Made by a program: the position numbers and the translations under genes. Positions 6,534 through 49,214 of a DNA stretch of 64,000 nt are shown here, in pieces. The stretch comes from a virus. Numbering within the stretch: the stretch's first letter is position 1; every line of letters starts with the position of its first letter. The notes beneath the pieces are model-generated. The model did no database searches and had not been told where the DNA came from. It was given only the letters and a program-made list of their open reading frames with translations. The stretch is from positions 71,207 to 135,206 of IMG/VR virus record IMGVR_UViG_3300046171_000182, one strand, 5' to 3'.

Positions 6534-6560
6534 AAGCAGCTTCGGCTGCTTTCTTTTTTT
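6534..6560 (+). terminator. Rho-independent terminator with cUUCGg loop
   Basis: AAGCAGC-TTCG-GCTGCTT followed by T-tract. Confidence 0.85.
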
Positions 6561-6561
6561 A

Positions 6562-6569
6562 TATAAATA
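6562..6569 (+). promoter_or_regulatory. T4-type late promoter
   Basis: TATAAATA shortly before ATG 6593. Confidence 0.8.
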
Positions 6570-6592: not shown

Positions 6593-7966
6593 ATGGCTAC
6601 GTTTGCAAAAATGTCTAGGGCGGAATGGGGTAAACCTGTTAGCGGATCAAGAGAAAGCAGAGTCGACGTCTTTATTGATGCAATAAAGGCTGGAGATCCC
6701 GTAAGCGATATTGAAGGAAAAGACGTTCATATTGCTAATACACAAAAAAATATAGATGCAATAAAAAAATACGTATCTGATTCTACATCAGGTTCAACTA
6801 CAACCTTTGATTTAAAATCTGGAGGTACAATAGTTTCGAATCAGATTGGTAAATCTCCATTGTTTGGAGGTCAAGGCGCAGGAGCAGGAGCAACTGGAGA
6901 GACTGCAAAGTTTGAATCATTACAATGTTTGTATATTGCTGCAGTGCTAGGCGAAGGCTCGACACACGAATTTTCACACTATACGATAGAAACTTTAAAA
7001 AAATATAAAGATAAAGTATTTGTAAGTGAACCTTTTGATACGTATGTAGCTATTGATGGATCATGGCATATATCTGGATTTAAAATAGCCAAGAAATTAA
7101 TTAAAGCAGGATACGTAACTACAAGACATACATTGCACCGTGGCGATAAAAAAATGGATTCGTTGTATGCATTAAAAAATAAATTACGTAAAGCTGAAGG
7201 TTTGCCTGCTATTAATCATGATAAATGGAATCCAGGTGATATATGGGCCATGAAAGATCAAGCAACACTATCTGTTAAATTAAATAAGATAAAAACATTT
7301 GGAGAACTAAACGAATTCATTGTTAATAATTTTATGAGTAGAAACGTGATCGGAATCTCTCTTAAAAAAGTAAAAGACAGAGAAACCGTTAAGCTCACTG
7401 ATTACAACGTAGAACAAAAAGCTTTGGATAAACACAAGTTTACAAAAGTTACATTAGAAACTGCTGCGGGTAAAGGCGTATTCTCATCTAAAAATGGAAT
7501 GTTTTTCTTTGATACAATAAGTAAAGCAGATATACGTGCACCAAACTCTTTTGGTGCTTTAAATATGGAACTACAAGGTAAGGGAGCTCGAGGTGGTAGA
7601 ACTGGATATGCACAAATAGTATATTCGGCTGCGGCACATTTAAACAAGACAATGCCTACAAATAAACAACTTGTAAGTCAGGCAAGAATATTAGCAGCTC
7701 CAAATCCTTCAAAAAGTAATAAAGATAGTTTTTATAACCTAGTAAAAGAAGTAAACCCTGAAATTGATAGAGCAACATTTGAGGATGGGCTATCATCTAA
7801 GAAAGGTCAAGCGCATTTTATACACCCATTATTGGGAGCTGCACATCTTGGTGCAGCACTTATGAAAGCAAACACAAGCCAGCGGAATAGCTTTACATCC
7901 GAAATAGTAAATGTTATGGGAGCCAAAACAAACGATTCGTCGGCCTATACAAAGGCATCAGCATAG
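6593..7966 (+). CDS. late-expressed PD-(D/E)XK-fold nuclease-like protein
   Basis: E-helix (KFES), KWNPGDIW and IGISLKK motifs. Confidence 0.55.
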   Translation: MATFAKMSRAEWGKPVSGSRESRVDVFIDAIKAGDPVSDIEGKDVHIANTQKNIDAIKKYVSDSTSGSTTTFDLKSGGTIVSNQIGKSPLFGGQGAGAGATGETAKFESLQCLYIAAVLGEGSTHEFSHYTIETLKKYKDKVFVSEPFDTYVAIDGSWHISGFKIAKKLIKAGYVTTRHTLHRGDKKMDSLYALKNKLRKAEGLPAINHDKWNPGDIWAMKDQATLSVKLNKIKTFGELNEFIVNNFMSRNVIGISLKKVKDRETVKLTDYNVEQKALDKHKFTKVTLETAAGKGVFSSKNGMFFFDTISKADIRAPNSFGALNMELQGKGARGGRTGYAQIVYSAAAHLNKTMPTNKQLVSQARILAAPNPSKSNKDSFYNLVKEVNPEIDRATFEDGLSSKKGQAHFIHPLLGAAHLGAALMKANTSQRNSFTSEIVNVMGAKTNDSSAYTKASA

Positions 7967-7977
7967 AGGATAATAAT

Positions 7978-8565
7978 ATGATATGGATAAGTGAATATGA
8001 ACATATAGAAGAACATGATTTAAATATTGATGTTGATCGCCTATATATGGATTATATTAGATTTACAAAAGAACATGAACATGTAACAGATGATGCACGC
8101 AATATTGATTTTAATGCAGTATGCGTCAATAGAATACCTGGTGATCCTAACTCGGTCACTGGTGGAAATGTCAGAGGTAAGTACTGGACTTATCCAACTG
8201 ACGAAGATAAAGAAGAAGAACGTCTGCCATACGTAGATGAAGCTGCATACACTGAAATTTGTCCGGAATTTGAGGACACATATACTGAAGAAGTATTTAG
8301 TTTATTAAGTTTAAAGTGGAATATTGGTAGACTCAGGTTCTTGATGAAACCCCCCAGATCGTGCCTGTCTTGGCATAGAGATCCAGAGCGGAGAATCCAT
8401 ATTCCACTTTACACCAATAAAGGTTGTAGAATGATTATTGAAGATCGTGCGTATTATATGCGTGCAGATGGTACAGTTTACATTACAGATAATACTGTAT
8501 ATCATAACTTCTTTAATGGCGGTGAGGAAAATAGAGTACATTTAGTCGCAACAAAATTAGAATAA
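7978..8565 (+). CDS. Asp/Asn beta-hydroxylase-like 2OG-Fe(II) oxygenase
   Basis: WHRD (HxD), RIHIPLYTN, HNFFNGG..NRVHLV. Confidence 0.75.
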   Translation: MIWISEYEHIEEHDLNIDVDRLYMDYIRFTKEHEHVTDDARNIDFNAVCVNRIPGDPNSVTGGNVRGKYWTYPTDEDKEEERLPYVDEAAYTEICPEFEDTYTEEVFSLLSLKWNIGRLRFLMKPPRSCLSWHRDPERRIHIPLYTNKGCRMIIEDRAYYMRADGTVYITDNTVYHNFFNGGEENRVHLVATKLE

Positions 8566-8568
8566 CTG

Positions 8569-8597
8569 TGTACATTTAAAAAGAATCGTGGTATAAT
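8569..8597 (+). promoter_or_regulatory. early promoter
   Basis: TAACTG-TGTACA-N17-TATAAT. Confidence 0.8.
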
Positions 8598-8603
8598 AAG
8601 CAT

Positions 8604-9833
8604 ATGGAAAATTTTAAAACACATATAACTGAAAATAAAAACACGCATATGACTCATATCGAAGATAAGGTTATATATGGTGGTGTTAAGGGAACACGAA
8701 ATGCTATTATGGCCTTACGTTCTTTACGAGATATGTTGAAAGGCGAACACGATGGAAACGTATCTGTTAAATGGGATGGTGCTCCTGCTATATTTGCTGG
8801 TATTGATCCTGGTGATGGAAGATTCTTCGTGGCAAAAAAAGGAATCTTTAATAAGAATCCCAAAGTTTATAAAACTCCTGCTGATGTTGATGCTGACACT
8901 AGCGGCGATCTTGCTGATAAGCTTAAAACCGCTTTGTCAGAACTCCCTGCCTTGGGTATCAAAGGTGTCGTGCAAGGCGATTTCTTATATGGACCAGGCG
9001 ATGTAAAAACTAAAAAGATTGCTGGTGACTCTTATGTTACATTTCATCCTAATACTATAGTCTATGCAGTGCCAAGTAACTCAGCTGCAGCTGCAGAGAT
9101 TAAGAAATCTAAAATAGGAATTGTATGGCATACTACATACACTGGTAAAACATTTGAAACTATGAGAGCGTCATATGGTGTAAATGTTTCGAAACTAAAA
9201 AAATCTAAAGGCGTGTGGTCGCAAGATGCAATGCTTAGAGATTTAACCAATATAACTATGAGCAAACGTGATACGGAGGAAGTCAATGAATATCTTTCAC
9301 AAGCTGGTAAAATCTTTAACAAAATCTCAGGAACAACCCTCAGGGAGCTCGAAAAACAGGAAGAGTTACAGAGGCTCATTGAAACGTACAACAACTCCTT
9401 TGTTAGATCGGGTACAGTCATTGGAAATACAAGAGGACATGTATCTGGGCTCATTCGCTTCGTCACGCAAAGATACAAAAAAGAAATAGATAAGCGCAAA
9501 ACCGAAAAAGGTAAAGGTGCACAGCAGCAAAAATTAGATACAATATTGTCATTCTTTAGTATACAAAACAAAAAAAGTTTAGAACAGATGTTTGAACTGC
9601 AAAAAGTTATAGTTTTGGCAAAATTAAAACTTATAAATATACTTAATAAGCTAGCGAAGGTGAAGACCTTCGTAAAGACTCATAATGGATACAAGGTAAC
9701 TGGAGAAGAAGGTTACGTTGCAATTGATAAACTTGGTGGTGATGCTGTTAAGATTGTTGATCGAATGGAATTTTCGTACAACAACTTCAGCAAAGATATA
9801 TTAAAGGGATGGGATAAACCAACGAGGAAGTAA
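8604..9833 (+). CDS. conserved T4-like phage protein (DUF6267-like) with ligase/capping-enzyme nucleotidyltransferase motifs
   Basis: VKWDG (motif I KxDG), QGD (III-like), EEGYV (IV), VKIV (V); N-terminal MENFKTHITE leader. Confidence 0.65.
   Translation: MENFKTHITENKNTHMTHIEDKVIYGGVKGTRNAIMALRSLRDMLKGEHDGNVSVKWDGAPAIFAGIDPGDGRFFVAKKGIFNKNPKVYKTPADVDADTSGDLADKLKTALSELPALGIKGVVQGDFLYGPGDVKTKKIAGDSYVTFHPNTIVYAVPSNSAAAAEIKKSKIGIVWHTTYTGKTFETMRASYGVNVSKLKKSKGVWSQDAMLRDLTNITMSKRDTEEVNEYLSQAGKIFNKISGTTLRELEKQEELQRLIETYNNSFVRSGTVIGNTRGHVSGLIRFVTQRYKKEIDKRKTEKGKGAQQQKLDTILSFFSIQNKKSLEQMFELQKVIVLAKLKLINILNKLAKVKTFVKTHNGYKVTGEEGYVAIDKLGGDAVKIVDRMEFSYNNFSKDILKGWDKPTRK
9632..9639 (+). promoter_or_regulatory. 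late promoter inside the DUF6267-like gene
   Basis: TATAAATA ~200 nt upstream of the basic-protein array. Confidence 0.55.
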
Positions 9834-10367
9834 ATGTATAGTTTTAAAGAACTAATGATATTGCCTGTTGAACCAGGCGAAGACGAGTACTTAAAGTACC
9901 GTGCGATGAAACGTCGCAAGCATATGTATGAAGCTACGATTCCTAATGGCCAAACAGCTATGACGAAGAAGCCTGATCTTACCAATAAAGATAAGAAAAC
10001 TATGGGTAAGATTGCAGATCTCATGAAGCGTGCTAATGAGGACAATGAAGAATCTACAGACGAAGCGCTATCAATGGCGGCTCGTCGTAAGCGTTCTCGC
10101 GATATGCGAAAAAATAAAAACAAATTAAGAATTGCTAGAAACCGCATGAAGAACCGTGTTGCTAATCCTGAGCGGATTAAGAAACGTGCGAAAAAGCAGG
10201 CAATAGATAAAATATATAAAAAGTTGACAAAAGGTATGTCAAGAAAAGATTTAACTCCTGCTAAAAAGGCTGAGCTTGAAAAACGTATTAGTAAAATGAA
10301 ACCAAGAGTAAATCGCATAGCAAAAAAGCTTTTGCCATCAGTAAGAAGAGCTGCACACGGAAAATGA
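9834..10367 (+). CDS. highly basic hypothetical protein, putative internal head protein
   Basis: MYSFKEL leader; very K/R-rich C-terminal module after TDE/ALS. Confidence 0.6.
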   Translation: MYSFKELMILPVEPGEDEYLKYRAMKRRKHMYEATIPNGQTAMTKKPDLTNKDKKTMGKIADLMKRANEDNEESTDEALSMAARRKRSRDMRKNKNKLRIARNRMKNRVANPERIKKRAKKQAIDKIYKKLTKGMSRKDLTPAKKAELEKRISKMKPRVNRIAKKLLPSVRRAAHGK

Positions 10368-11494
10368 TAAATCGGTTTAGTGAATACTTAGTAGAAGAAG
10401 AAAAAATTGGTTATTTGGTCTTTGGCCGAATGAATCCTCCTACTATTGGACATGGTAAATTATTAGATAAGCTCGCCACAACAGCTGGCCGAGCACCTTA
10501 TCGTATCTATCTGTCGCAGTCAAACGATCAAAAAGATAATCCTCTTACGTATTCTGACAAAGTAAAGTATGCACGTAAGATGTTTCCTCGTCACGCAAGA
10601 TCAATTATTATTGATAAAAAAGTCGTAACGCCCTTCCATGCACTATCTGCAATGTATAGTGCAGGATTTAAAAAGGTTATATTAGTTGCAGGATCTGATC
10701 GTGTAAAAGAATATGACTTGCGTCTAAATAAATATAATGGAAAAAAGGGTACTCATGGATTTTATAACTTTGATGGTGGTGTAAAAGTTGTTAGTGCAGG
10801 CCAAAGAGATCCTGATGGAAAAGGTGCAGAAGGCGCATCTGGTACAAAGCAAAGAGGTTATGCAAAGAATAACGACTTTACTGGATTTGCACAAGGATTA
10901 TCTAAAGCTATATCAAACCCTGATGCGAAGAAGATGTTCAACGCTGTACGCAATGGTATGGGGTTAAAAGAAGAGAATGAATTTAAAAGACATATTCAAC
11001 TTAAAACCGTATCAGAAACTAGAGAAGCTTTTATTAAAGGTGAGCTCTTTGAACTCGGGGAACAAGTCATTGTCAAGAAAACATCTGAGGTTGGTAAAAT
11101 CACACTCATCGGATCGAACTACGTCATTGTAGAAACTTCTGATAAGACTACGAGACAGTGGTTAGATGCTGTTGAGAAGATTGTAGAAGAAGCAAAGTAT
11201 GATTATGGAACTGATGCATCAGTAAAGTATATGAAAAAGACTACACCTGGACAGAATGAGAGCACACCTCAAGATTCTGACATTAAGGATCGTGAAGGAT
11301 CGCAGCCTAAAGCGTATCATAAAGGCCTAAAGAAAGCTACAAAGGTAGCAAGAGATCGGCACTTTAAGAAACATGGTAAAAAAGCAGATAACGATCCTAG
11401 TGCATATAAACCAGCACCAGGTGATAAAAAGAATAAAGGTAAAACTAAACAATCGACTTGGACTACTAAGTTTAAGCAGATGTATGGGGATTAA
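10364..11494 (+). CDS. cytidylyltransferase-like (HIGH) nucleotidyltransferase with appended basic modules
   Basis: FGRMNPPTIGH, VAGSDR, SAGQRDPD, ASGTKQR; leader MINRFSEYLVEE. Confidence 0.8.
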   Translation: MINRFSEYLVEEEKIGYLVFGRMNPPTIGHGKLLDKLATTAGRAPYRIYLSQSNDQKDNPLTYSDKVKYARKMFPRHARSIIIDKKVVTPFHALSAMYSAGFKKVILVAGSDRVKEYDLRLNKYNGKKGTHGFYNFDGGVKVVSAGQRDPDGKGAEGASGTKQRGYAKNNDFTGFAQGLSKAISNPDAKKMFNAVRNGMGLKEENEFKRHIQLKTVSETREAFIKGELFELGEQVIVKKTSEVGKITLIGSNYVIVETSDKTTRQWLDAVEKIVEEAKYDYGTDASVKYMKKTTPGQNESTPQDSDIKDREGSQPKAYHKGLKKATKVARDRHFKKHGKKADNDPSAYKPAPGDKKNKGKTKQSTWTTKFKQMYGD

Positions 11495-11734
11495 ATGATA
11501 AACTTCAAAGAATATATCACAGAAGATAAAGCAGGTAGCTCACTTGCCGATAAATCTAAAAAGTCAGGTATCTCTACAGGTACTTTGCGTAAAGTATTTA
11601 ATCGTGGCGTTGCTGCATGGAAAACCGGTCACAGACCTGGCACCACGCCAACTCAGTGGGGACATGCACGAGTCAATGCTTTTATTGTCAAAAAGAAAAA
11701 AGGTGGGCTTAACCATGATAAGGACCTAGCATAA
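11495..11734 (+). CDS. small basic protein (DUF5824-like), putative internal head protein
   Basis: MINFKEYITE leader; KSGIS..L.KV..RG.AAW.TGHRPG..QW..ARV. Confidence 0.7.
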   Translation: MINFKEYITEDKAGSSLADKSKKSGISTGTLRKVFNRGVAAWKTGHRPGTTPTQWGHARVNAFIVKKKKGGLNHDKDLA

Positions 11735-12081
11735 TGAAATCTTTTATTCAAATAAGGCAGGAACTAAATGAATCTCCTTACGGTGATCCATATAGAACTG
11801 TTCAACGAACAAAAGATGCTATGTCTAGTCATACTGCTGCTATAAAAAAACATGATACAGCTATGCAATCTCATATAAACAAAGCTAATGCTGCAGAGAA
11901 AAAGGGTTTAAATACCAAAGCTGATAACCATAGAGAAGCTGCTAATGCACACCACCTTGGAAAAGAAGATCACGATCACGCTAAAAGCTTATTAAAAAAA
12001 CATGGACCAGATCATAATGGATATGAATCAGCTGCAAAAAGTGCACATTCAAGTTCAGATCGTATTCATAAAGATAACTAG
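11734..12081 (+). CDS. His/Ala-rich putative internal head protein
   Basis: MKSFIQIRQELNE leader; repeated HxxAAxxH helices. Confidence 0.6.
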   Translation: MKSFIQIRQELNESPYGDPYRTVQRTKDAMSSHTAAIKKHDTAMQSHINKANAAEKKGLNTKADNHREAANAHHLGKEDHDHAKSLLKKHGPDHNGYESAAKSAHSSSDRIHKDN

Positions 12082-12090
12082 GGGTTAAAA

Positions 12091-13422
12091 ATGAAAACAT
12101 TTAAAGAAATAAGTGAAGCCTCAGGCGTTTCATCAAGCGGTGCACAGCACATGCTTAGTAATGATGCTGAGAAAAAAGCACATTCAGCTCTCATGCAAAA
12201 GAAGCATGGCGTTAAAACAACTTATCATGGCAGCGATGAACTAAAATATCACGGTTCTCAAAAGAATGTAAAGAAAGCTCTTGGTACTCATTATGGCGGT
12301 GATCATGATCATGCAAAAGATGATCATCCACACATTTATAAAGAAAACGTCAAAACCGCTGATAGAAAACCTGAAATCTATACAAAGCCTGATGGAAAAA
12401 AGGGTACACGTATGGTGCCTATGGATAGAGAAGTTATCAAGAAGGAAAAAACTCTTGAATGGCTAAAGGCATCTCTTGCAAGAGAAGCTGCAAAAGTTAA
12501 ACCACGTCAAGATGACATGGAAGAAGCTTACGAAAACACAATGTACTGTAAAAAGTGTGGGTGTGAAAGAGGTAATCCAGATCCTGACTGTTCATGCAAA
12601 ATGGAAAACGCTTCATTGACAGATGCACAATGTTATTCAGAACAATCTAAATGTGGATCTTTACGTAAAGAAGACGTTAACGAGCTAACAATTGCTGATG
12701 TCCAAAAGGCTACTGCGATGGCAAAGAAACGTCAAGCAAAAGAACGTGAAGCCGGAAAGAAAAGTGTATCAACCACTGATCTTGGAGCACGTATGCCTAA
12801 AAAAGAAACATTTGAGCCTCATATGATGTATGATCCAAAAACAGGCAAAGGCTATAAAGCTGAAAAAGAAGCCGATCACCTTCGAATGAAGAAGATGGGA
12901 TACACTCACGACAAACCTAAAAACGAAGGCGTTAAAACATTTGCCGAGATCTCAAAAGGTATGGCAGGCCGTTATATCAAAAAGGCACAAGTAAGTACAG
13001 CAGATGCTGCAAAGAGTACTGAGCGTGGATACGTTGACTCACGCTCGCCTGATCGTGGTATTGCTACAGCAGGAAAAGCTCAGACTAGAAAAGGCATTAA
13101 GACATTTATTAATCGCAATAAGGGTACATCTACTGCTGTTAATAAATTAACTGGTAAAGCTAAAGTACCTGCAAGAGAAAGTAAAGGCATTGACGCAATG
13201 AAGAAGGCTGGTAATGCTAAAGCTGATGCTGAAGCAGCCGACCGTAAGAAAATGAAAAACGAAATTTCAAATAATAAGATGGGCCAATACGTACGTAAAG
13301 CTGGCGCCGATATTGCAAAAAAGGCCGGAGCTGGAGATACCGATAAAGCTAAAGCAAGAGTAAAAGGCGTATCTAAAGCTATGGATAAGATGGACAAGAA
13401 CAGATTGTTTGGAAGGCAGTAA
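12091..13422 (+). CDS. modular basic polyprotein-like putative internal head protein
   Basis: MKTFKEISE leader; short K-rich modules separated by xxE motifs. Confidence 0.7.
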   Translation: MKTFKEISEASGVSSSGAQHMLSNDAEKKAHSALMQKKHGVKTTYHGSDELKYHGSQKNVKKALGTHYGGDHDHAKDDHPHIYKENVKTADRKPEIYTKPDGKKGTRMVPMDREVIKKEKTLEWLKASLAREAAKVKPRQDDMEEAYENTMYCKKCGCERGNPDPDCSCKMENASLTDAQCYSEQSKCGSLRKEDVNELTIADVQKATAMAKKRQAKEREAGKKSVSTTDLGARMPKKETFEPHMMYDPKTGKGYKAEKEADHLRMKKMGYTHDKPKNEGVKTFAEISKGMAGRYIKKAQVSTADAAKSTERGYVDSRSPDRGIATAGKAQTRKGIKTFINRNKGTSTAVNKLTGKAKVPARESKGIDAMKKAGNAKADAEAADRKKMKNEISNNKMGQYVRKAGADIAKKAGAGDTDKAKARVKGVSKAMDKMDKNRLFGRQ

Positions 13423-13835
13423 TGACAACTACACGAGAGCTGTTAGCACAAATATATCAACATAGTCAAGTTGGAACTATGGAAGAAGCTAAAGATCCTG
13501 GCGAATATGATCAGGAAGGTGGAATGGCTAAAGGTCAATTAAAAACAATGATTGATGCTGCTCAAGAGTTGCATGATATGCTAGGTGAAAATGATAACCT
13601 TCCAGAATGGGTACAGTCAAAAATAACAAAGGCTACCGATTATATTGATTCAGTAAGAGATTATATGAAGAGCGAAGTATCTGAAGGTCCGGCACGAGAT
13701 CGTATTCTAAAGCAAATGGATAAAGCTAGTGGTAGAACACAAGCCGATCGTGAAGCTGATGCAAAGAAAGCTGCAGCACGACGTAAGGCTGCAGATAAAG
13801 ACTTAGCCGATTTTAGAAAGAAAATGGGATCATGA
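13422..13835 (+). CDS. conserved phage protein (EGxMAKxQL...LPEWVQSKIT module)
   Basis: recognisable T4-like marine phage module flanked by MEE/VSE sites. Confidence 0.7.
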   Translation: MTTTRELLAQIYQHSQVGTMEEAKDPGEYDQEGGMAKGQLKTMIDAAQELHDMLGENDNLPEWVQSKITKATDYIDSVRDYMKSEVSEGPARDRILKQMDKASGRTQADREADAKKAAARRKAADKDLADFRKKMGS

Positions 13836-14065
13836 TAAAGTTTAAGCAATTCATATCTGAAAAAAAATCAGAGTCTTGGGAAGCAGGATATAAACGTAGA
13901 GTTGTGAAAACTACTGATGCCGATCATAAAGCCGATGGCTATAAATGGAGAATCAAAGGTAAAGAACGTCCTGAGATTTCTATTAAATTATATAAATCTA
14001 AACCAAATCAAGCTGAATTTAACAAGCAGATGAGACGAGTTGCGGGGCACGAGTTCGGTGGATAG
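13832..14065 (+). CDS. small putative internal head protein
   Basis: MIKFKQFISE leader. Confidence 0.7.
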   Translation: MIKFKQFISEKKSESWEAGYKRRVVKTTDADHKADGYKWRIKGKERPEISIKLYKSKPNQAEFNKQMRRVAGHEFGG

Positions 14066-33959: not shown

Positions 33960-34155
33960 TGTTTCTACCTGTTACGTAACCTGCTACGATGCCAACGACA
34001 CCTACTAATGCGTTATTCAATAAAGCAAGTATGCCTTGATCAAATTCTCCGCCATGTTCTGACGCCATCATAAATTCATCTATTACAATAATCCCCAATA
34101 AAGTCATAAGTCCTACTGCTAATATTAACACGGTAATATCTTTAATATATTTCAT
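33952..34155 (-). CDS. small two-TM membrane protein
   Basis: two hydrophobic helices. Confidence 0.6.
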   Translation of the reverse strand: MKYIKDITVLILAVGLMTLLGIIVIDEFMMASEHGGEFDQGILALLNNALVGVVGIVAGYVTGRNNV

Positions 34156-34511
34156 TAAAATTCCTCTACTACAAATTCACCCCACGCTTGGCCGAATATC
34201 CATATAAAAATTAGTATGAGTGCAGTTGCAATTAATAACGATGGTATGACAATAAACTGCACCCAGCGTGGCTTGCCTTTTACCCAATGAATTATTTTCT
34301 TTACTTTTGTTTTTAGTCCATCTAATATGTATGTGCCTACTGTCCAGCGAATCATTCTCATTATTATTAAAATAGGTGAAGTGATTACGTCAAAGAGTAC
34401 TAGAAATAAATCTACTGCTGCATCGACAATATTGTCAAGGCTAAATACTTTTTTTAGTTTTTCTTTATTAAACGCCAAAGCTCTCTCCGCATCCACAACT
34501 TGCTGTTGCAT
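34155..34511 (-). CDS. membrane protein
   Basis: two hydrophobic segments. Confidence 0.55.
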   Translation of the reverse strand: MQQQVVDAERALAFNKEKLKKVFSLDNIVDAAVDLFLVLFDVITSPILIIMRMIRWTVGTYILDGLKTKVKKIIHWVKGKPRWVQFIVIPSLLIATALILIFIWIFGQAWGEFVVEEF

Positions 34512-34749
34512 TAGGATTAACCACCTTTAAGAACGATCCTCCCAATTCTTCAACATAATCAATTGTGCATCCGAAGATAAACATTTCAGCCATAGGATCT
34601 AACCATAGGTTTTCTATTGTGGGCTCAGCATCTGTTACGCCCCACTCATATTGGAAACCGGCGCATCCACCACCTTTTACTGCGAGAGACACATTTGGTT
34701 TACCAACCTTTTTTAAATAGTCTTTTGCACTATCAGTAACCTGAATCAT
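34468..34749 (-). CDS. iscA: A-type Fe-S carrier protein (IscA/ErpA/HesB family)
   Basis: KGGGCAGFQY, IDY...G..F...NPNA..SCGCGESF. Confidence 0.9.
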   Translation of the reverse strand: MIQVTDSAKDYLKKVGKPNVSLAVKGGGCAGFQYEWGVTDAEPTIENLWLDPMAEMFIFGCTIDYVEELGGSFLKVVNPNATASCGCGESFGV

Positions 34750-34961
34750 TCTTCTACTAATCCTATTGATACCATCTTACCATTAATATCTTGAACTTTC
34801 AATGTACCTTGCGCGCAAGAATATCTTCCCGATTCACCCAGGTTTCTTGCAATTTCTCGTTTAGCTTTCAAGCAATCAGATAGTGAGTCCTTTGGAGTGT
34901 ATTCCTGCGCATCTCCATCTATAAACAAAAATAGCACAAAGCCTTTAAATATCTCTATCAT
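34746..34961 (-). CDS. small two-Cys protein
   Basis: SLSDCLKAKR...YSC. Confidence 0.6.
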   Translation of the reverse strand: MIEIFKGFVLFLFIDGDAQEYTPKDSLSDCLKAKREIARNLGESGRYSCAQGTLKVQDINGKMVSIGLVEE

Positions 34962-34962
34962 G

Positions 34963-35364
34963 CTAATTACTCCCTCTCGCTTTAATAGCGTCGATTCTTT
35001 CTTCTAGTTTACTTATTCGTTTTTCGTAAAAATCTAATGTAAGTTTTTGCTGCTGATCGTACGGTGCATTACCACTTTCAATATCAGTTATCATTTTATC
35101 GAGCTGACCTGATAAGTGTTCTATTAACATAAACTGCTCATTGTCAGCTGGTAACGATCCCATCTCACCACGTGGCCACTTAATTCTAAATTCTGTGTTT
35201 TTTTCTAAATCAGTGTTCATCAATGTGATGTTAGTTTCAACCTGATTTAATCTTTCTATTAAGCCGAAATAAGCCCACGTACCCACTGCTACTGCAGCAA
35301 TGATACTAATGATATTTCGTAATGGTGTTGCAATTACTGTGTCTTCACTTATCTTTGCTGCCAT
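34963..35364 (-). CDS. conserved marine phage membrane-anchored protein
   Basis: TM helix, FRIKWPRGEMGSLPAD.EQFMLIEH. Confidence 0.7.
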   Translation of the reverse strand: MAAKISEDTVIATPLRNIISIIAAVAVGTWAYFGLIERLNQVETNITLMNTDLEKNTEFRIKWPRGEMGSLPADNEQFMLIEHLSGQLDKMITDIESGNAPYDQQQKLTLDFYEKRISKLEERIDAIKARGSN

Positions 35365-35554
35365 TTCGACTCTCTAACACTCTCTTACATTGATCACTAG
35401 CATATGTAGTAAACCAACGAGGAGCAAAAGCATGAATAAAGACGGCGTATGCTGCCTTCTCTAATTGCCATGAAACCCACATCGCATGTTTGAAATGTTG
35501 CCAACGAGTTTCGCCTACATCATCTAGATGCAATTTACATTTTTTACTAAACAT
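35345..35554 (-). CDS. DUF6356-like protein
   Basis: HL..VGET.WQH...A...IHA..P. Confidence 0.65.
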   Translation of the reverse strand: MFSKKCKLHLDDVGETRWQHFKHAMWVSWQLEKAAYAVFIHAFAPRWFTTYASDQCKRVLESRNGSKDK

Positions 35555-35952
35555 TATCTATTATCCACCACTGTTTTCTTTTGTACTGCTGTTACACTGT
35601 TTTTCTTTTGTGCAGTAATAGCTTCCTTGCCATAGAAGGCTGCAACTATCGCTGCGACTGACACAAAGTAAACCGCTGCCATATCACCAAGGATTTCACC
35701 GGCCTGTGTAAGTTTTAACCATATTGCCAATACGACTGAGAAAGGATATAGTAGCATTCCGAATAATGCAAACCATGCCATGTTTCTCTGTGCGTCTTGC
35801 TTCTTGTCTTCATTTTCCATATCAGAACGCATGTCCTGAAGTTCAATCATTCTTTCTTCCATTGCAATCTCTTCATCAGTTATAATTCCATCACCGTCAC
35901 GGTCTAAATGAGCCCATTGGCTCTCTGGTTCTAATTTCTTTGCCGCTGCCAT
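35554..35952 (-). CDS. two-TM protein with EF-hand-like loop (holin candidate)
   Basis: DRDGDGIITDEE, two TM helices, basic C-tail; downstream of late promoter. Confidence 0.55.
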   Translation of the reverse strand: MAAAKKLEPESQWAHLDRDGDGIITDEEIAMEERMIELQDMRSDMENEDKKQDAQRNMAWFALFGMLLYPFSVVLAIWLKLTQAGEILGDMAAVYFVSVAAIVAAFYGKEAITAQKKNSVTAVQKKTVVDNR

Positions 35953-35961
35953 TTAACTCTC

Positions 35962-36444
35962 CTACCACGCTCCGTTTGATTTGCCTAAAAGGTAAACTAT
36001 AAATCCTATTACACCAGACATTGCAAGTGCTAAAGCGATACCCACAAGCCATTCAATAATTAATTGTTTACGCTCTTCAGCTTTATATATCGCTTCTTTT
36101 CGTTCTTTTCTCATTTGCGCTTCTATGTGCACAATCTCTTTCCAAGCCGATGGTCCATAAAATAAACTGATATGAGATCGTAATTCTTCTCTCATCTCTT
36201 TTGCTTTTTGTTTATGTCCCCAAGTCTCCAAAGCCTTTTGTTCAACTTGACTTGCGCCAAATAGTTTTTTAAACATAGGCGGGTTTTCAGCCTGCTTATG
36301 AGAAAAGTCTAAGTCTGACATAGCACCTGCCCACTGATTCAGGGTAGATCCCATATCATGCAAGTCCTTGCCAACAGCAATAGCCTTTTTCAGACCTTTG
36401 TATGCAGCTGTAGCCCCAGCTATAGCCGTTACTGGATCGATCAT
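35962..36444 (-). CDS. conserved hypothetical protein with C-terminal TM helix
   Basis: MIDPVTAIA.A.AA...KK, YG..AW. Confidence 0.7.
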   Translation of the reverse strand: MIDPVTAIAGATAAYKGLKKAIAVGKDLHDMGSTLNQWAGAMSDLDFSHKQAENPPMFKKLFGASQVEQKALETWGHKQKAKEMREELRSHISLFYGPSAWKEIVHIEAQMRKERKEAIYKAEERKQLIIEWLVGIALALAMSGVIGFIVYLLGKSNGAW

Positions 36445-43996: not shown

Positions 43997-44903
43997 ATGT
44001 CTTTTGCAAATCTAAAACGTAACAAAGATAACATCTCTAAACTCATTAAAGCAGCCGAAGCAACTGGCGGCGGCGGTGAAAAGAAATCTTATGCAGATGA
44101 TCGAATCTGGAAACCAACAGTCGATCAAGCTGGTAACGGTTACGCTATTCTACGATTCCTTCCTGCCCGTGAAGGAGCCGAACTACCTTGGGCAAGATAC
44201 TGGGACCACGGTTTTAAAGGACCAACAGGTCAATGGTATATCGAAAAATCCCTCACATCAATCGGTCAGAACGATCCAGTCGGTGAACTTGAATTCTAGA
44301 CTATGGAATACTGGTATCGAAGAAGACAAAGAGGCTGCACGTCGGCAGAAGCGTCGGTTGCATTATGTAACTAACGTCTATGTTGTATCTGATCCTGCTA
44401 ATCCTGAACGTGAAGGCAAAGTCTTCTTGTATCAGTTTGGCAAGAAAATCCATGACAAGATTATGGATATGATGCAACCAGAATTCGCAGACGAAGATGC
44501 AATTAATCCATTTGATATGTGGGAAGGTGCGGACTTTAAATTAAAGATCCGTAACGTTGAAGGCTATCGTAACTATGATAAGTCTGAGTTTGCAAAACAA
44601 AAACCTCTTTTAGATGGCGATGATGCGCAACTCGAAACGGTTTATGATCAGATGTATGATCTATCTGAATGGACAGATCCTGCAAATTATAAAACGTATG
44701 ATGAATTGAAGACTAAGCTATCTTCTATTCTAGGTGAAGTCGCTGGTATGGGTGCTGCTACTATGGCACAAACTATCCAGATGAATGAACCTGTTGAAGC
44801 TGCTGCTCCTCAACGAATCGAACCAGTCACAGCAGAGAATATCAAAGTCGAAGACGATGATGACACTCTAAGCTATTTTGCTAAATTAGCTGAGGCTGAC
44901 TAA
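43997..44903 (+). CDS. 32: single-stranded DNA-binding protein gp32 (1-nt insertion near 44290)
   Basis: DDRIWKP..D..GNGYA..RFLP, HGFKGP.G.WYIE, GKKI, FD.WEGA.FKLK, acidic C-tail DDTLSYFAKLA. Confidence 0.95.
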
Positions 44904-44907
44904 AAAT

Positions 44908-44937
44908 AAAGGCGGGTGTTTATTACCCGCCTTTTTT
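44908..44937. terminator. bidirectional Rho-independent terminator
   Basis: AAA-GGCGGGT-loop-ACCCGCC-TTTTTT between convergent genes. Confidence 0.85.
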
Positions 44938-44958
44938 AAAATCTTTTGACGCCAACAA

Positions 44959-46626
44959 CTACGGTGGCATATTAACAACTGCACTACCAAAGTCCTGAGT
45001 ATTCCCGACGCTTACTATACTCATATTTCCGCCAAATTTTTGTTCAAGTTTAGATAAGTCATTAAACTGAGTTATGCCACCAGGAAAAGCATTGTATGAG
45101 TTAGAATTTACAAGACCTACATTAGGAGGTTGAGGCCCAATTACTGGAGGGTTTGAAAGATAATTACCATATGCCCTACTAATAAATCGATTTGCAGCGC
45201 CTTGAGTATCGCTCTTAGACATCATACTTAATCGATAGTCTTCCGGAACGCCTGCAGTGTCCAGTAAAAAATTTATTCCCTGGTTAGTTAAATTATTTAA
45301 ATCTGCATAACCGTTTTGGACAAAATCTAATATACCAAGTGTAAACCCTGTTGCCACGTTTGTTCCTGCTGCTACAGGAGCGGGCATGTTAGCTAGCTCA
45401 GGATCTTGAGTTCCTTGATAGGCTTCAAACGCGACCGCAAGTGGTCCTGCTGCTTTTAATAAAATCGTAGCTGACTTTTTCAGAGCGGCACTACTTTTAA
45501 TTGCTTCGGCAGCAATCCGTACCTGAGCTTGTTTCCTCGCCTTTATTATTGCCTCAGCCTTTCCGCCCCCACCGACCGGATCATTTAAAGACCGAAATCT
45601 TCCCTGTGCATCTCTACGAACCGTTGGCTGGCCAAACATAGTTACTTTTCGCCCGGTAGTTGGCGGACTATTTATTGCCTGCATTCGAGCCGCCGCAGCT
45701 GCCGCTGCGTTTACTTTAGGAACGGGGCTTTTTCGTGTAACAACAGGCGGAGGCGGCTTTTTATTTTTAGCATTAGCATCTTTCATTTCATCTACAGGTG
45801 GCGGTGCACCGCCTCTAATAGACTTTATTCCTAATGCTAGGCCTATAGCTGTCGATAAAGCTTTAACTCCCCTACCAATTGGCAATAAGGCTAGTGCTAA
45901 TGCTAAACGTTTTCCGGCAAATCTTAATAAAGCAGGTGCAACTAAGGACAATGCAACTCCTAGCCCGCTTATGAATGTTTCGGATTGTGTATCAATATTA
46001 AGCTCAGTACCTGGAATATTATATACGCCGTCTTTCTTTCCAAACTTTTCATTAATAGCAGCAATTGCGGTATCACCATATGCACCTACAATACCAGCAA
46101 TAGCAAGTCCTAGAGGGCTTTTAACTCCTAATAATCTTGCGCCTATTGCTGTTTGTACACCATCAACTAAGTTTTTCTTTGTTTTCGGCTCTAACTGCTT
46201 ATCATCAAAGTATTCTTTTTCAACATAATCTACTAGAGCGCCTATGGCTTGTTCACCGAATTTAGACATGACTGCAATTGCCGGTGCGAATGATATTAAT
46301 TTACCAGCACCTAATCCGATAGCACCTGCAGCTAAACCCATTCCGGCCAATAGTTTTTGAGCAATTGCGCCGAAGCCAAGGCCTCCACCAAATCCTAAAC
46401 CTTGTGATAGTCCTGCCCTAAAGTTTTGAGGACGTTGAGCTATTACCTTTTTACGTCTTTCTTTTTGTCTTGCTTCAATTTCATCTTCTCTGCTATCTCC
46501 ACTACGTTGCTGTCTGGACAGAAACTCGCCAAAGCGATCTCTAAGACCTGCTGTGGTCTTAGTTCCATCTTCTATTGAAGAAGTTTGATCTCTTAAAGTG
46601 TCATTAATCTGAGCTAATGTTGCCAT
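44959..46626 (-). CDS. tape-measure-like protein (gp29-like)
   Basis: long Ala/Gly/Leu-rich helical protein directly after gp26/gp51-like genes. Confidence 0.6.
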   Translation of the reverse strand: MATLAQINDTLRDQTSSIEDGTKTTAGLRDRFGEFLSRQQRSGDSREDEIEARQKERRKKVIAQRPQNFRAGLSQGLGFGGGLGFGAIAQKLLAGMGLAAGAIGLGAGKLISFAPAIAVMSKFGEQAIGALVDYVEKEYFDDKQLEPKTKKNLVDGVQTAIGARLLGVKSPLGLAIAGIVGAYGDTAIAAINEKFGKKDGVYNIPGTELNIDTQSETFISGLGVALSLVAPALLRFAGKRLALALALLPIGRGVKALSTAIGLALGIKSIRGGAPPPVDEMKDANAKNKKPPPPVVTRKSPVPKVNAAAAAAARMQAINSPPTTGRKVTMFGQPTVRRDAQGRFRSLNDPVGGGGKAEAIIKARKQAQVRIAAEAIKSSAALKKSATILLKAAGPLAVAFEAYQGTQDPELANMPAPVAAGTNVATGFTLGILDFVQNGYADLNNLTNQGINFLLDTAGVPEDYRLSMMSKSDTQGAANRFISRAYGNYLSNPPVIGPQPPNVGLVNSNSYNAFPGGITQFNDLSKLEQKFGGNMSIVSVGNTQDFGSAVVNMPP

Positions 46627-46820
46627 TATAAGTTCCTTACGTTTCTTCTTTTTTGTTCTTCGGCCTGTTCTTTTAGATCTTCAGAAAGCATCGTGATATA
46701 GATCTCCCTCTCCCATGGTAACATTCCTTCAATCTCTGTCAAGGAATATTTGTGATTTTGTATTAACTGATAATTTGTTTCAAAATAGTTAATAAGGTTT
46801 TCATGAGAAAGGTTTATGAG
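46626..46820 (-). CDS. 51: gp51-like baseplate hub assembly frame with no own start codon (probably reached by -1 frameshift)
   Basis: LSHENLINYFETNYQLIQNHKYSLTEIEGMLPWEREIY; TAATG-coupled to tape measure gene. Confidence 0.75.
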   Translation of the reverse strand, partial: LINLSHENLINYFETNYQLIQNHKYSLTEIEGMLPWEREIYITMLSEDLKEQAEEQKRRNVRNL

Positions 46821-47527
46821 AAAAAATCTTGGATACCTCGCAGCGTATGTGTATTATCGTGATTACATGCTGTACATTTAAATTTAATATCGTGCGTTAA
46901 TTGTGGTACAGCATTTACAAATTCCATAATCTTATCAAACTGATCATTTGTAAGAGAGTCTAAAAAGGTTTCTACGTCTTCTTTAGGCTCATCTGCAAAA
47001 TTAAAGTTTTCTTCTTCAGACTGTAAACTATCTAAACAACCCAAAGTCAAATAATATAGAGTCTCTGAATATCCTGCATCTTCTGGTAAGTCACCTTTAA
47101 CCATATGAGAATACATCGGATATTTTAATTTCAATGTATAGTTTTCGTTTAATACTATTTTATTTGCATCAGTCTTTTCTACGTCTAATTCTATTTTATC
47201 TAACTCAACTGTATAGTCATTTGGTATTTCACATTCTGAACAATTTATTGTTATTTTTGATGTCTCACCGGCAGATTTTGCACGAATCCTAGTAAAAATA
47301 TATTCTACATCAAATGTTGCTAAAGAAAGTGGATCGATCGGATCTACTACACATGACTTAATCGTATCTACAATAGATGATAAAATTTGTTTATCGTCTT
47401 GTGACTCTAACGCAATAAGTAATACTTTTTGTTCTTTTACTAAAAATGGTCTATATCTAACTTCCTGTTTTGTTGATGGTATAGTAAGAGAGTACTTAGG
47501 TACCTCGTTCACTGTTGGTAAAGGCAT
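46814..47527 (-). CDS. 26: gp26-like baseplate hub / tail assembly chaperone
   Basis: MPLP...P.Y.L..PS...YRPFLVKEQKVLL.A, FDVEY.F..IRAKS.GE, CxxC pairs, ends G.QDFF. Confidence 0.85.
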   Translation of the reverse strand: MPLPTVNEVPKYSLTIPSTKQEVRYRPFLVKEQKVLLIALESQDDKQILSSIVDTIKSCVVDPIDPLSLATFDVEYIFTRIRAKSAGETSKITINCSECEIPNDYTVELDKIELDVEKTDANKIVLNENYTLKLKYPMYSHMVKGDLPEDAGYSETLYYLTLGCLDSLQSEEENFNFADEPKEDVETFLDSLTNDQFDKIMEFVNAVPQLTHDIKFKCTACNHDNTHTLRGIQDFFS

Positions 47528-48132
47528 TATACAGATCTCCAATCCTTAAATGATAATTGCACGTTCAATTCAACCATTCCACCTGGTTCATTGCTAAATT
47601 CTATAGCGCTCATACTTGTGGGAAACGCTTTTTCTAAAATACAAGTGTATTCAACTTGTGCGTCTTCTAGTCGCTTTTGCAGACTATCAAACTCTGCACT
47701 GTTACTTAATACACCTGATGATAATATTCTTTCAGCTTGGCCAATTACATTTTTTGGCATACTAAGCTGTTGTACTCGTACTTCAAACCCGTATTCATCT
47801 GGGTAATTTAATTCTTTTGTTTCAAAGTTTATTATTTTACTTTGCCAAAACTCAAAGTATTGTTTGATGTCGTAATCATTTGGTACATGAAAAGTTAATG
47901 GCACGTCATCTGTTGCGTATCCATATGCTAACTTATGTTCTTTCATACCAACCATACGTGGACTTGTAAGAATCTGCCTAAAAGGAAGCTGTGCCGATTT
48001 GCATAAAACATTTAATCGCCGAGTAGTAATACCAAATGCGCCTCCGACTGACGGCAAGAATACACGCCATAAAGATGTTCTTGCAAGTCCAGAACCAAAC
48101 TCTCCTTTGAGATCGTCAATGCTATATACCAT
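47527..48132 (-). CDS. tail-tube-fold protein (gp54/gp19-like)
   Basis: LAR...W.V, LC..AQLP, FE.WQ..I, YP.EY, AFP..M. Confidence 0.7.
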   Translation of the reverse strand: MVYSIDDLKGEFGSGLARTSLWRVFLPSVGGAFGITTRRLNVLCKSAQLPFRQILTSPRMVGMKEHKLAYGYATDDVPLTFHVPNDYDIKQYFEFWQSKIINFETKELNYPDEYGFEVRVQQLSMPKNVIGQAERILSSGVLSNSAEFDSLQKRLEDAQVEYTCILEKAFPTSMSAIEFSNEPGGMVELNVQLSFKDWRSV

Positions 48133-48716
48133 TAGATCATTTTCCTTGAATCTCTATATACAGTAGACTTACCTGATTTCTGAAAGTCTGCAGTTGGTAA
48201 GAATGTAGCTATCTCCCACTCAGGAGCTGGTACATATGCAAATCTACTTTTAACGTTTGAATTTAAATAATGTTTGAAGCATGGCTTAAAAAATTTCAAA
48301 CTAGATGCACGTTTTAGTGTATTATATGTTGCTTCGAACTTCGTAGTATCATCAAAATTTTTGTTGTTAGTTATATCCATCAACGCGTCAAGCATCTTTG
48401 CTCTTAATGTTGGTGGAAGATAATGTAAATTCAGACCATAAAAACCACCGGGTGCAGGACCTACAACAACTACTAACGGAAAGCTATCATAATACGGTAG
48501 AGTATCTTTTGTTTTTGGATCATAGAAAAACATATACATGTTTCCTGCAATGCCTTTATTTTTTAACTCTACTGGATCTTCTTTCATGAGTGCACTACGA
48601 CTTACACGTCCCATTGCTGAGGCTTTACGTCTGAACCAATCTATTGATTGTTTTGTTCTTGGTGTAACGCCTGCTCTGAAAGCTTCGAGCTCTAGTTTTT
48701 GAAATATATTTGCCAT
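48132..48716 (-). CDS. 2: DNA end protector gp2
   Basis: MYMFFYDPKTK..LPYYD.FPL, GLNLHYLP, PC.KHYL. Confidence 0.9.
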   Translation of the reverse strand: MANIFQKLELEAFRAGVTPRTKQSIDWFRRKASAMGRVSRSALMKEDPVELKNKGIAGNMYMFFYDPKTKDTLPYYDSFPLVVVVGPAPGGFYGLNLHYLPPTLRAKMLDALMDITNNKNFDDTTKFEATYNTLKRASSLKFFKPCFKHYLNSNVKSRFAYVPAPEWEIATFLPTADFQKSGKSTVYRDSRKMI

Positions 48717-48721
48717 AGCAG

Positions 48722-48729
48722 TATTTATA
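48722..48729 (-). promoter_or_regulatory. late promoter
   Basis: TATAAATA on minus strand just upstream of gp2. Confidence 0.75.
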
Positions 48730-48731
48730 TG

Positions 48732-49214
48732 CTATTTTTTCTTTTTCTTTGGCGGAGGTAGCGGCTTTAGTTTCTTTATTGGTTTAGGCATAATACCCAT
48801 AGTTTGTAGAGTTTTCTCTGTCCAAATCTGAAATTCCCACTTTCTATCCTTGGCATATGACTCTGCAGCTTCCCATTTATTCATATTCTTGACATACGTA
48901 AATGCCTCATTGATATATCGCTTTGTGCGTTTAGATCCGGTTGGCGGTCTTGTTTCTTTATCTGGTTTAATCTCAACCAATAGTATTCTATCTTCAAGTA
49001 CTATTTTAAGGTCAGGGAAGTAGCGGTGATAACGCTTATCACCGTCATAATAATATGGTACAATGACTTCTTCACTGGTCCAAGATTTTACCTTTGGATT
49101 CTCATCACACCATTTAAAGCAGTGTCTTTCCCACATTGATCTAAAAATGATGCTATTATGATCACCACCGTACTTCTTTGGGTTTTTTGGTTTGTATTTA
49201 CCTGAGTATGCCAT
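48732..49214 (-). CDS. 4: head completion nuclease gp4
   Basis: AYSGKY.PKNPKKY.GD, RS.WE, HRYFPD, VEIKP, N..KW.AA. Confidence 0.92.
   Translation of the reverse strand: MAYSGKYKPKNPKKYGGDHNSIIFRSMWERHCFKWCDENPKVKSWTSEEVIVPYYYDGDKRYHRYFPDLKIVLEDRILLVEIKPDKETRPPTGSKRTKRYINEAFTYVKNMNKWEAAESYAKDRKWEFQIWTEKTLQTMGIMPKPIKKLKPLPPPKKKKK

Follow-up and report, generated by a model that had tools for sequence, protein, structure and literature searches.

Here we describe a pair of linked phage genes that encode a ligase-like protein of the family DUF6267 and a HIGH-motif nucleotidyltransferase (hereafter the transferase). Both lie in a 64,000-nucleotide stretch of viral DNA (the window), positions 71,207 to 135,206 of the IMG/VR record IMGVR_UViG_3300046171_000182. 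The source record is 135 kb long, with an estimated completeness of 77%, and the phage is a marine T4-like myophage with affinities to Kyanoviridae. The record encodes baseplate and tail proteins of the T4 type, and the closest named phage is C48C1 (Kyanoviridae; 67% amino-acid identity for the ligase-like protein); a megablast search of the region against phage records gave no match. The two open reading frames (ORFs) are on the + strand at 8604-9833 (409 amino acids) and 10364-11494 (376 amino acids), as a preliminary description of the DNA had noted. Conserved motifs, predicted folds, gene linkage and N-terminal leaders lead us to propose, at roughly even odds in our judgement, that the pair comprises a head-packaged strand-sealing enzyme and an adenylyltransferase that supplies its cofactor.

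DUF6267 (PF19782) is the only Pfam family to pass its cut-off for the 8604 protein. A whole-library HMMER search with this protein returned 2595 representative clusters (50% identity) at E ≤ 1e-3, and the family is present in 456 phage records, of which 441 are named after cyanophages. Our literature search found no paper on DUF6267, nor any on 'cytitidyltransferase'. In an alignment of 99 full-length representatives (each 35–60% identical to the query; 38% mean identity per column), 18 columns are invariant. Eight of these are K56, D58, G59, G125, D126, E369, G370 and K383, and the remainder are H18, G66, K79, N150, Y154, G172, H176, T177, F390 and N394. The preliminary description had read four strings in this protein (V55-K56-W-D-G59, Q124-G-D126, E368-E369-G-Y-V372 and V382-K383-I-V385) as motifs I, III, IV and V of covalent, lysyl-NMP-forming nucleotidyltransferases (NTases). 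All four are present with their key residues invariant, including the candidate catalytic lysine K56 in 99 of 99 sequences, and motifs III (G125-D126), IV (E369-G370) and V (K383) follow motif I in order. In a 100%-complete relative (G001, locus L022), the DUF6267 match at C1:38619-39776 is reported with one in-frame TAG inside it.

The Rnl1 family has an invariant pattern (K99xD101G102, E159, E227-G228 and K240) that resembles that of DUF6267, and 4 of the 99 DUF6267 members touch the Pfam family RNA_lig_T4_1 (PF09511) below its cut-off (best E 6.2e-4). With hhalign, the DUF6267 alignment scored probabilities of 0.6%, 2.6% and 0.65% against T4 Rnl1, T4 DNA ligase (gp30) and a 31-sequence Rnl1 alignment, respectively. 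The sole stretch aligned with the Rnl1 family, EGYVA...K (E369 with E227, K383 with K240), covers motifs IV and V and is not significant. The Rnl1-specific invariant residues of the N-terminal part have no counterpart in DUF6267. Searches of PDB sequences with both enzymes or their profiles yielded nothing or chance matches (ribosomal eS8 and aprataxin-like proteins), and the ESM Atlas returned unnamed viral clusters alone for DUF6267.

An AlphaFold2 model of DUF6267 built from the alignment has a pLDDT of 94.1 and a pTM of 0.91, and residues 1–9 (pLDDT < 50) are its sole disordered part. The β-rich core (residues ~50–210 and 350–395) is split by an all-helical domain (residues 221–348). This insert is variable within the family, because it is much shorter in gp87 of cyanophage S-CREM2 (L087:2391-3278; 295 amino acids). 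In a Foldseek-independent structure search against 48,161 chains, all matches longer than 160 residues were ligases (Z 6.6–7.9): REL1 (Z 7.9, 196 residues), T4 Rnl2 (7.7, 163), NgrRnl (7.6, 187), the tRNA ligase Trl1 (7.5, 198; and 7.1, 204) and archaeal Rnl3 (6.6, 198). The other high-scoring rows were helical bundles of 55–100 residues, which matched the insert. A second structural look gave Z 8.0 for NgrRnl and 6.1–6.4 for DNA ligase 1, within an overall range of 6.1–8.0. The highest-probability ligase rows in Foldseek were archaeal DNA ligases (0.51–0.57), and the search of BFVD returned family members followed by a phage RNA ligase (Atu_ph07) at a probability of 0.97. We base the fold call on the combination of three points: the long matches are all ligases, residues 9–396 are spanned by them, and the ligase motif set is invariant. 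The model thus supports placing the 8604-9833 product in the covalent nucleotidyltransferase (ligase) superfamily as a divergent member, with lysyl-NMP chemistry as its predicted activity. We class DUF6267 as a new family inside this superfamily, outside Rnl1, Rnl2 and the DNA ligases.

The best long matches, RNA ligases of the Rnl2/Rnl5 type (T4 Rnl2, 2hvq/1s68; Trypanosoma REL1, 1xdn; Naegleria NgrRnl, 5cot/6vt3; Z 7.4–8.0 over 163–196 residues), share with DUF6267 the order KxDG ... EG ... K. The E369–K383 spacing (14 residues) equals that of E312–K326 in NgrRnl (numbers from PDB entry titles), two residues that we presume to be the corresponding motif positions. Unlike Rnl2, DUF6267 has its 128-residue helical domain inside the NTase fold and not appended to it, an Asp in motif III, an extra invariant N-terminal HxxHxED element, the invariant pair H176-T177 and a capsid-targeting leader; it has no significant sequence similarity to Rnl2 and does not match PF09414. 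The ligase domain of fungal Trl1 matches at Z 7.1–7.5 over 198–204 residues. ATP-dependent DNA ligases (T4 gp30, human LIG1 and archaeal enzymes) have the common superfamily fold (Z 6.1–6.4 over 163–178 residues); DUF6267 differs from them in having no PF01068 match and no OB domain, since just 26 residues, forming one helix, follow K383. Stenotrophomonas phage DLP6 carries both kinds of gene.

The transferase has the FGRMNPPTIGH string (F20–H30) and the S159-G-T161 string that were taken earlier as marks of the NMNAT/CoaD/cytidylyltransferase superfamily, and G21, R22, N24, P25, T27, G29, H30, S159, K162 and R164 are invariant across an alignment of 51 homologues. The second string forms part of S159–R164, which we take to be the motif known as SxTxxR. 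The chain comprises a leader (residues 1–11), a catalytic domain (13–204), a small five-stranded β-barrel (234–272) and a basic tail. The tail holds the first half of DUF5824, of which the next ORF (79 amino acids) encodes the second half; in the homologues P0378 and P0368 the domain is unbroken and contiguous with the transferase. The second piece of the split domain (11495-11734) has acquired a leader of its own. Against the Pfam family CTP_transf_like the protein scored 16.7 bits, below the 21-bit cut-off, and both PHROG families that it matches are annotated 'cytidyltransferase'. Its AlphaFold2 model (pLDDT 80.4, above 90 over most of residues 20–140) gave 78 PDB matches at E ≤ 1e-3 in Foldseek, with PPAT, NadD and NMNAT at a probability of 1.0. 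Over residues 13–204, Z was 13.0–13.7 for PPAT and 12.2–12.9 for NadD, NadM and archaeal NMNAT, so that the fold expectation of the preliminary description held for this protein as it did for DUF6267. The transferase shares with these enzymes the Rossmann-type fold and the TxGH and SxTxxR signatures, and differs in its low identity (12–16% or less), extra β-barrel, basic tail, DUF5824 and leader. The model supports a predicted adenylyltransferase of the PPAT/NMNAT class.

The genes for DUF6267 and the transferase are linked. Among 80 related viral contigs (53–83% identity), 73 have the transferase gene downstream of the DUF6267 gene in the same orientation; the remaining 7 end less than 1.5 kb beyond the DUF6267 gene. 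Four of 5 cyanophages (S-WAM1, P-SSM4, S-RIM8 and S-RSM4) have the two genes side by side, inside the uvsX-gp41-mazG replication block, and one ORF separates them in DLP6. The preliminary description had proposed looking for co-occurrence or fusion across phages, and fusions are also found: a transferase profile detected them in 7 of the 150 best DUF6267 representatives (5 in the order ligase–transferase and 2 in the reverse order), and the cyanophage isolate S-PM2 has a 591-amino-acid fused DUF6267–transferase protein (BFVD). In one representative (P0125), a single chain combines DUF6267, the transferase, DUF5824 and a C-terminal module like the product of the 13832 ORF of the window. A metagenomic representative (P0121; 636 amino acids) has a P-loop kinase (AAA_33/Zeta_toxin) fused to DUF6267, which recalls the LIG-KIN arrangement of Trl1. 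Between the kinase and the DUF6267 core of P0121 is a leader-like FTDFITE; if this protein is real, the head protease could cut it into two enzymes. Complex prediction for DUF6267 (residues 12–409) with the transferase (12–280) gave a score of 0.01 and a mark of 0.32, which speaks neither for nor against binding.

Both proteins begin with a short leader ending in I/V-x-E (MENFKTHITE in DUF6267 and MINRFSEYLVE in the transferase), which bears out the earlier reading of targeting leaders and resembles the capsid-targeting sequence (CTS) of T4. The T4 CTS is MKTYQEFIAE (PMC8442874), and T4 gp21 cleaves after Glu, with Alt cleaved at ITE-6 (PMC5694885). Six ORFs within 8604-14065 start with M-x-x-F-K-E-x-[IL]-x-E or a close variant. 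The strict pattern occurs in 5 of the 445 ORFs of the record; 4 of these are in the same interval and the fifth is a 58-amino-acid minus-strand ORF. A gp21-type prohead protease (Peptidase_S77, PF03420, E 1.3e-39) is encoded at C1:28302-28727 of the record. T4 IPI-III and Alt share with this arrangement the leader of about 10 residues ending hydrophobic-x-Glu and the gp21-type protease, and Alt is a precedent for enzyme cargo; in the present phage the candidate cargo would consist of a ligase-fold enzyme together with an adenylyltransferase.

The leader behaves as a separable module: 55 of the 99 DUF6267 representatives carry it, and 19, in which the conserved core starts within the first 8 residues, do not (25 are unclear by this pattern-based count). 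In the transferase family, conservation reaches 90% or more at F5 and E11, and 4 of 5 cyanomyoviruses checked have the leader on this enzyme. The window, C48C1 and DLP6 have it on both proteins. S-CREM2 gp154, which is 34% identical to the window transferase (E 2e-36), begins MKNFSSFLTE, and the DUF6267 homologue of the same phage, gp87, opens directly with the core. In the S-CREM2 proteome paper (PMC10665884), gp154 is described as a 'cytidylyltransferase' found in CsCl-purified virions with 3 unique peptides, such enzymes are said to be frequently detected in cyanophage virions, and the authors regard the protein as homologous to NMNAT, with a rise of NAD+ early in infection as its possible effect. 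S-CREM2 gp112 (408 amino acids, virion-detected) was considered as the DUF6267 homologue and rejected, the homologue being gp87. The T4-type leaders of the window are consistent with, and support, virion delivery, and we infer from them that both enzymes are probably injected with the DNA.

In the mechanism that we propose, both enzymes and several neighbouring small basic proteins would use their T4-type capsid-targeting leaders to enter the prohead core late in infection. The gp21-type protease would trim DUF6267 after I-T-E10 and the transferase after L-V-E11, and both would remain inside the head until ejection together with the DNA, acting before any phage gene expression. DUF6267 would be adenylylated on K56 and would seal 3′-OH/5′-phosphate breaks in nucleic acid, whether DNA or RNA, with the 128-residue helical insert possibly substituting for the helical accessory domains of RNA ligases. 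The transferase would act alongside it, in the simplest case by making or recycling the adenylyl donor of DUF6267, for example NAD+ from NMN and ATP. A more specific version is an injected, self-sufficient sealing kit in which the transferase makes the donor of the ligase (NAD+ or a related dinucleotide) on the spot; we regard this version as improbable. Were it true, breaks in the incoming genome would be sealed even where abortive-infection defences had emptied the NAD+ or ATP pools, the kinase fusion would be an extended version of it, and the cyanophage proteins that lack the leader would also fill the role of the long-missing replicative ligase.

Several observations weigh against the packaged sealing enzyme and its cofactor-supplying partner. 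No significant sequence link connects DUF6267 to any ligase family, its motif III carries an Asp in place of the Glu of the Rnl1 family, and an OB-fold domain is not present. Foldseek against the PDB gave nothing at E ≤ 1e-3 for the DUF6267 model, and the Z values are middling, the tool itself cautioning that Z under 8 can be common. The substrate of the transferase cannot be named from its fold, because PPAT, NadD, NadM and NMNAT tie within 1.5 Z, and no finding links the transferase chemically to the ligase-like protein, the genes for which are ~65 kb apart in S-CREM2. The leader is missing from DUF6267 in 5 of 5 cyanomyoviruses checked, an observation new to this work, so co-injection is not general. 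Delivery from the virion, as suggested in the preliminary description, is favoured for the leader-bearing proteins by the leaders, the protease and the detection of gp154 in S-CREM2 virions, and is not supported as a rule of co-delivery. In the available text of PMC10665884, gp87 is missing from the rows of hypothetical virion proteins, in which 86 and 111 are adjacent, and the authors caution that abundant non-structural proteins may co-purify.

DUF6267 might instead be the missing replicative or repair DNA ligase, an analogue of T4 gp30 that acts in the cytoplasm during replication and to which the leader was added secondarily in this clade. Published accounts describe cyanomyoviruses as having no gp30 and offer 'distant homologues not yet identified' as one option (PMC2984593, PMC1079782), although the 2010 review considers it more probable that the host ligase is used (PMC2984593). 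In the 135-kb record, PF01068, PF01653 and PF09414 had no match (PF01068 and PF09414 at E ≤ 1), and no ligase family was matched; the record is, however, just 77% complete. We compared eight complete DUF6267-bearing genomes and used T4 as the positive control for the PF01068 search. Seven have no PF01068 match (G001, C48C1, S-WAM1, S-CREM2, P-SSM4, S-RIM8 and S-RSM4), a distribution also new here, and PF01653 is absent from the four tested as well as from T4; T4 shows the reverse, with PF01068 and without DUF6267. DLP6 is the exception among the eight: alongside DUF6267 (E 1.4e-119), it encodes a canonical ligase of PF01068 (53.2 bits). The complementarity is thus a tendency and not a rule, and a strict replacement of gp30 by DUF6267 was rejected. 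The leaderless cyanophage gene within the uvsX-gp41-mazG block would fit a replicative role, but the closest structures are RNA ligases and the OB domain is lacking. Overall we consider this reading unlikely.

As another possibility, the pair may serve RNA repair, rejoining tRNA (or other RNA) that host anticodon nucleases have cleaved, as T4 Pnkp and Rnl1 do. In favour of this, the best fold matches are RNA ligases, Trl1 (Z 7.5 over 198 residues) among them. Reviews list cyanomyoviruses as having no rnh, rnlA or pseT homologues (PMC2984593, PMC1079782), and the missing rnlA and pseT also count in favour. The P-loop kinase fused to DUF6267 in P0121 and the four family members that touch the Rnl1 Pfam family point the same way. 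In the 135-kb record, however, no end-healing enzyme was found, and its sub-threshold AAA_33 matches are away from the locus. Moreover, no RNA-repair pathway is known to include a HIGH-class transferase. We think RNA repair quite unlikely as the function of the pair.

Alternatively, the module may concern the nucleotide cofactor and not strand joining, with the transferase as its central component. As an injected NMNAT, the transferase would replenish NAD+ in the face of defences that deplete it, and the ligase-fold protein would transfer AMP within that pathway, be it one of small molecules or of protein AMPylation. Its matches to NadD, NadM and archaeal NMNAT, the wider distribution of the leader on the transferase than on the ligase-like protein, and the NMNAT role with an early NAD+ rise suggested by the S-CREM2 authors (PMC10665884) favour this cofactor pathway. 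Yet PPAT scores equally or slightly better, no NAPRTase or Nampt gene is present in the 135-kb record (itself incomplete), and the set of motifs I, III, IV and V is that of polynucleotide ligases. We consider it improbable. Finally, the N-terminal motif could be no packaging signal at all but a shared amphipathic start of late phage proteins, neither enzyme being in the virion. The evidence for packaging in this phage is indirect, the leader is short, 19 of the 99 family members do without it, and the co-purification caveat from the S-CREM2 proteome (PMC10665884) applies. This is nevertheless highly unlikely in our view: the motif is confined to one gene cluster, it ends in the Glu motif of the protease, and it recurs internally in P0121 just before the DUF6267 core. 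In S-CREM2, as far as the available text of PMC10665884 goes, the leader-bearing transferase was detected in virions and the leaderless DUF6267 protein was not listed.

The two enzyme genes belong to a tight run of + strand genes from 6593 to 14065 that includes small or lysine-rich ORFs (Table 1). Between them lies the gene for a basic protein of 177 amino acids, which the preliminary description passed over and which holds this position in 55 of the 80 related loci; its C48C1 counterpart begins MLSFKQFVSE. The run opens with the gene for a conserved 457-amino-acid protein. A phrog_1462 neighbour is found upstream in 21 of the 80 loci (tblastn), S-WAM1, P-SSM4, S-RIM8 and S-RSM4 have a hypothetical gene of similar size (383–474 amino acids) at the equivalent place (matched by position and size), and DLP6 has a 305-amino-acid ORF there (matched by position alone). 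The 457-amino-acid protein has neither a Pfam nor a PDB sequence match. It contains a GDIW...ISLKK stretch that resembles the PD-(D/E)xK nuclease motif, and its nearest named clusters in the ESM Atlas are the restriction endonucleases HpaII and HaeIII, leads with scores of just 0.83 and 0.82. The β-hydroxylase-like gene that follows is present in 2 of the 80 loci, inserted between the 457-amino-acid gene and DUF6267 in this lineage; in P-SSM4 and S-WAM1, a 2-oxoglutarate (2OG) oxygenase gene lies upstream of gp41 in the corresponding block.

Table 1 Features of the DUF6267–transferase gene cluster (window coordinates)
Feature	Position	Strand	Evidence or detail
Terminator-like hairpin	6534-6551		near TATAAATA motif
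T4-type late-promoter-like motif TATAAATA	6562..6569	+	24 nt upstream of 6593 ORF
Conserved upstream neighbour, 457 aa	6593..7966	+	phrog_1462, E 2.6e-31
2OG-Fe(II) Asp/Arg β-hydroxylase-like protein, 195 aa	7978..8565	+	PF05118, E 3.3e-11
Sigma-70-like consensus match	8569..8597	+	TGTACA, 17 nt, TATAAT, with TG; 10/12 positions
DUF6267 protein, 409 aa	8604..9833	+	Pfam PF19782, E 9.1e-102
DUF6267 leader, aa 1-10, MENFKTHITE, ending I-T-E	8604..8633	+	like capsid-targeting sequence
Motif I, K56-W-D-G59, proposed adenylylated lysine	8769..8780	+	K56, D58, G59 invariant 99/99
All-helical insert, aa 221-348 (128 residues), with basic stretch	9264..9647	+	between N-terminal half of NTase fold and motifs IV-V
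Motifs IV-V, aa 369-385 (EGYVA...VKIV)	9708..9758	+	E369, G370, K383 invariant
Lysine/arginine-rich protein, 177 aa	9834..10367	+	phrog_23027; divergent leader-like start MYSFKELMILPVE
HIGH-motif nucleotidyltransferase, 376 aa	10364..11494	+	phrog_3041, E 3.6e-65; phrog_395, E 2.7e-58
FGRMNPPTIGH (F20-H30), (H/T)xGH signature	10421..10453	+	G21, R22, N24, P25, T27, G29, H30 invariant
S159-G-T-K-Q-R164, second HIGH-class signature	10838..10855	+	S159, K162, R164 invariant
79-aa ORF, DUF5824 second half, own leader MINFKEYITE	11495..11734	+	PF19141, E 4.8e-18, positions 63-125
Further cluster ORFs with leaders	11734-12081, 12091-13422, 13832-14065	+	N-terminal sequence
Cluster ORF without leader	13422-13835	+	

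The ligase-like gene had also been credited with its own early promoter at 8569. A sigma-70-like consensus match does exist there, and its -10 hexamer ends 6 nt before the ATG of the 8604 gene; the region holds 36 such sites, compared with 24.3 ± 4.7 in shuffles. Among 56 relatives, TATAAT occurs within 70 nt upstream of the DUF6267 gene in just 8 and TATAAATA in 3, and in most of the 56 the gene abuts the upstream gene with no spacer. The proposed early promoter is thus not conserved, a further new observation. The TATAAATA motif, which we take to be the T4 late-promoter consensus, is not above chance in the window (12 occurrences versus 10.05 in shuffles). The copy that precedes the 6593 gene would fit if the entire block were expressed late, a weak hint for which the intergenic position is the only suggestive element. 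Elsewhere in the window, a 518-amino-acid protein of the baseplate block (53337-54893) has a C-terminal amidase/endolysin domain (phrog_822, E 3.9e-29) and is presumably a tail-associated lysin. Negative GC skew at 34001-36000 and 44001-48000 falls together with groups of ORFs on the minus strand (such as 44959-49214), the rest of the window being plus-strand.

In the ocean, T4-like phages are a major cause of death for cyanobacteria and heterotrophs, and for twenty years these marine phages have been described as having no DNA ligase, RNA ligase or polynucleotide kinase (PMC2984593, PMC1079782). DUF6267 is very widespread, and a ligase-fold enzyme tied to an adenylyltransferase makes this ligase gap directly testable. 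If the two enzymes are true head cargo, they would add a new enzyme class to the phage-injected proteins, alongside T4 Alt, IPI and the N4 RNA polymerase.

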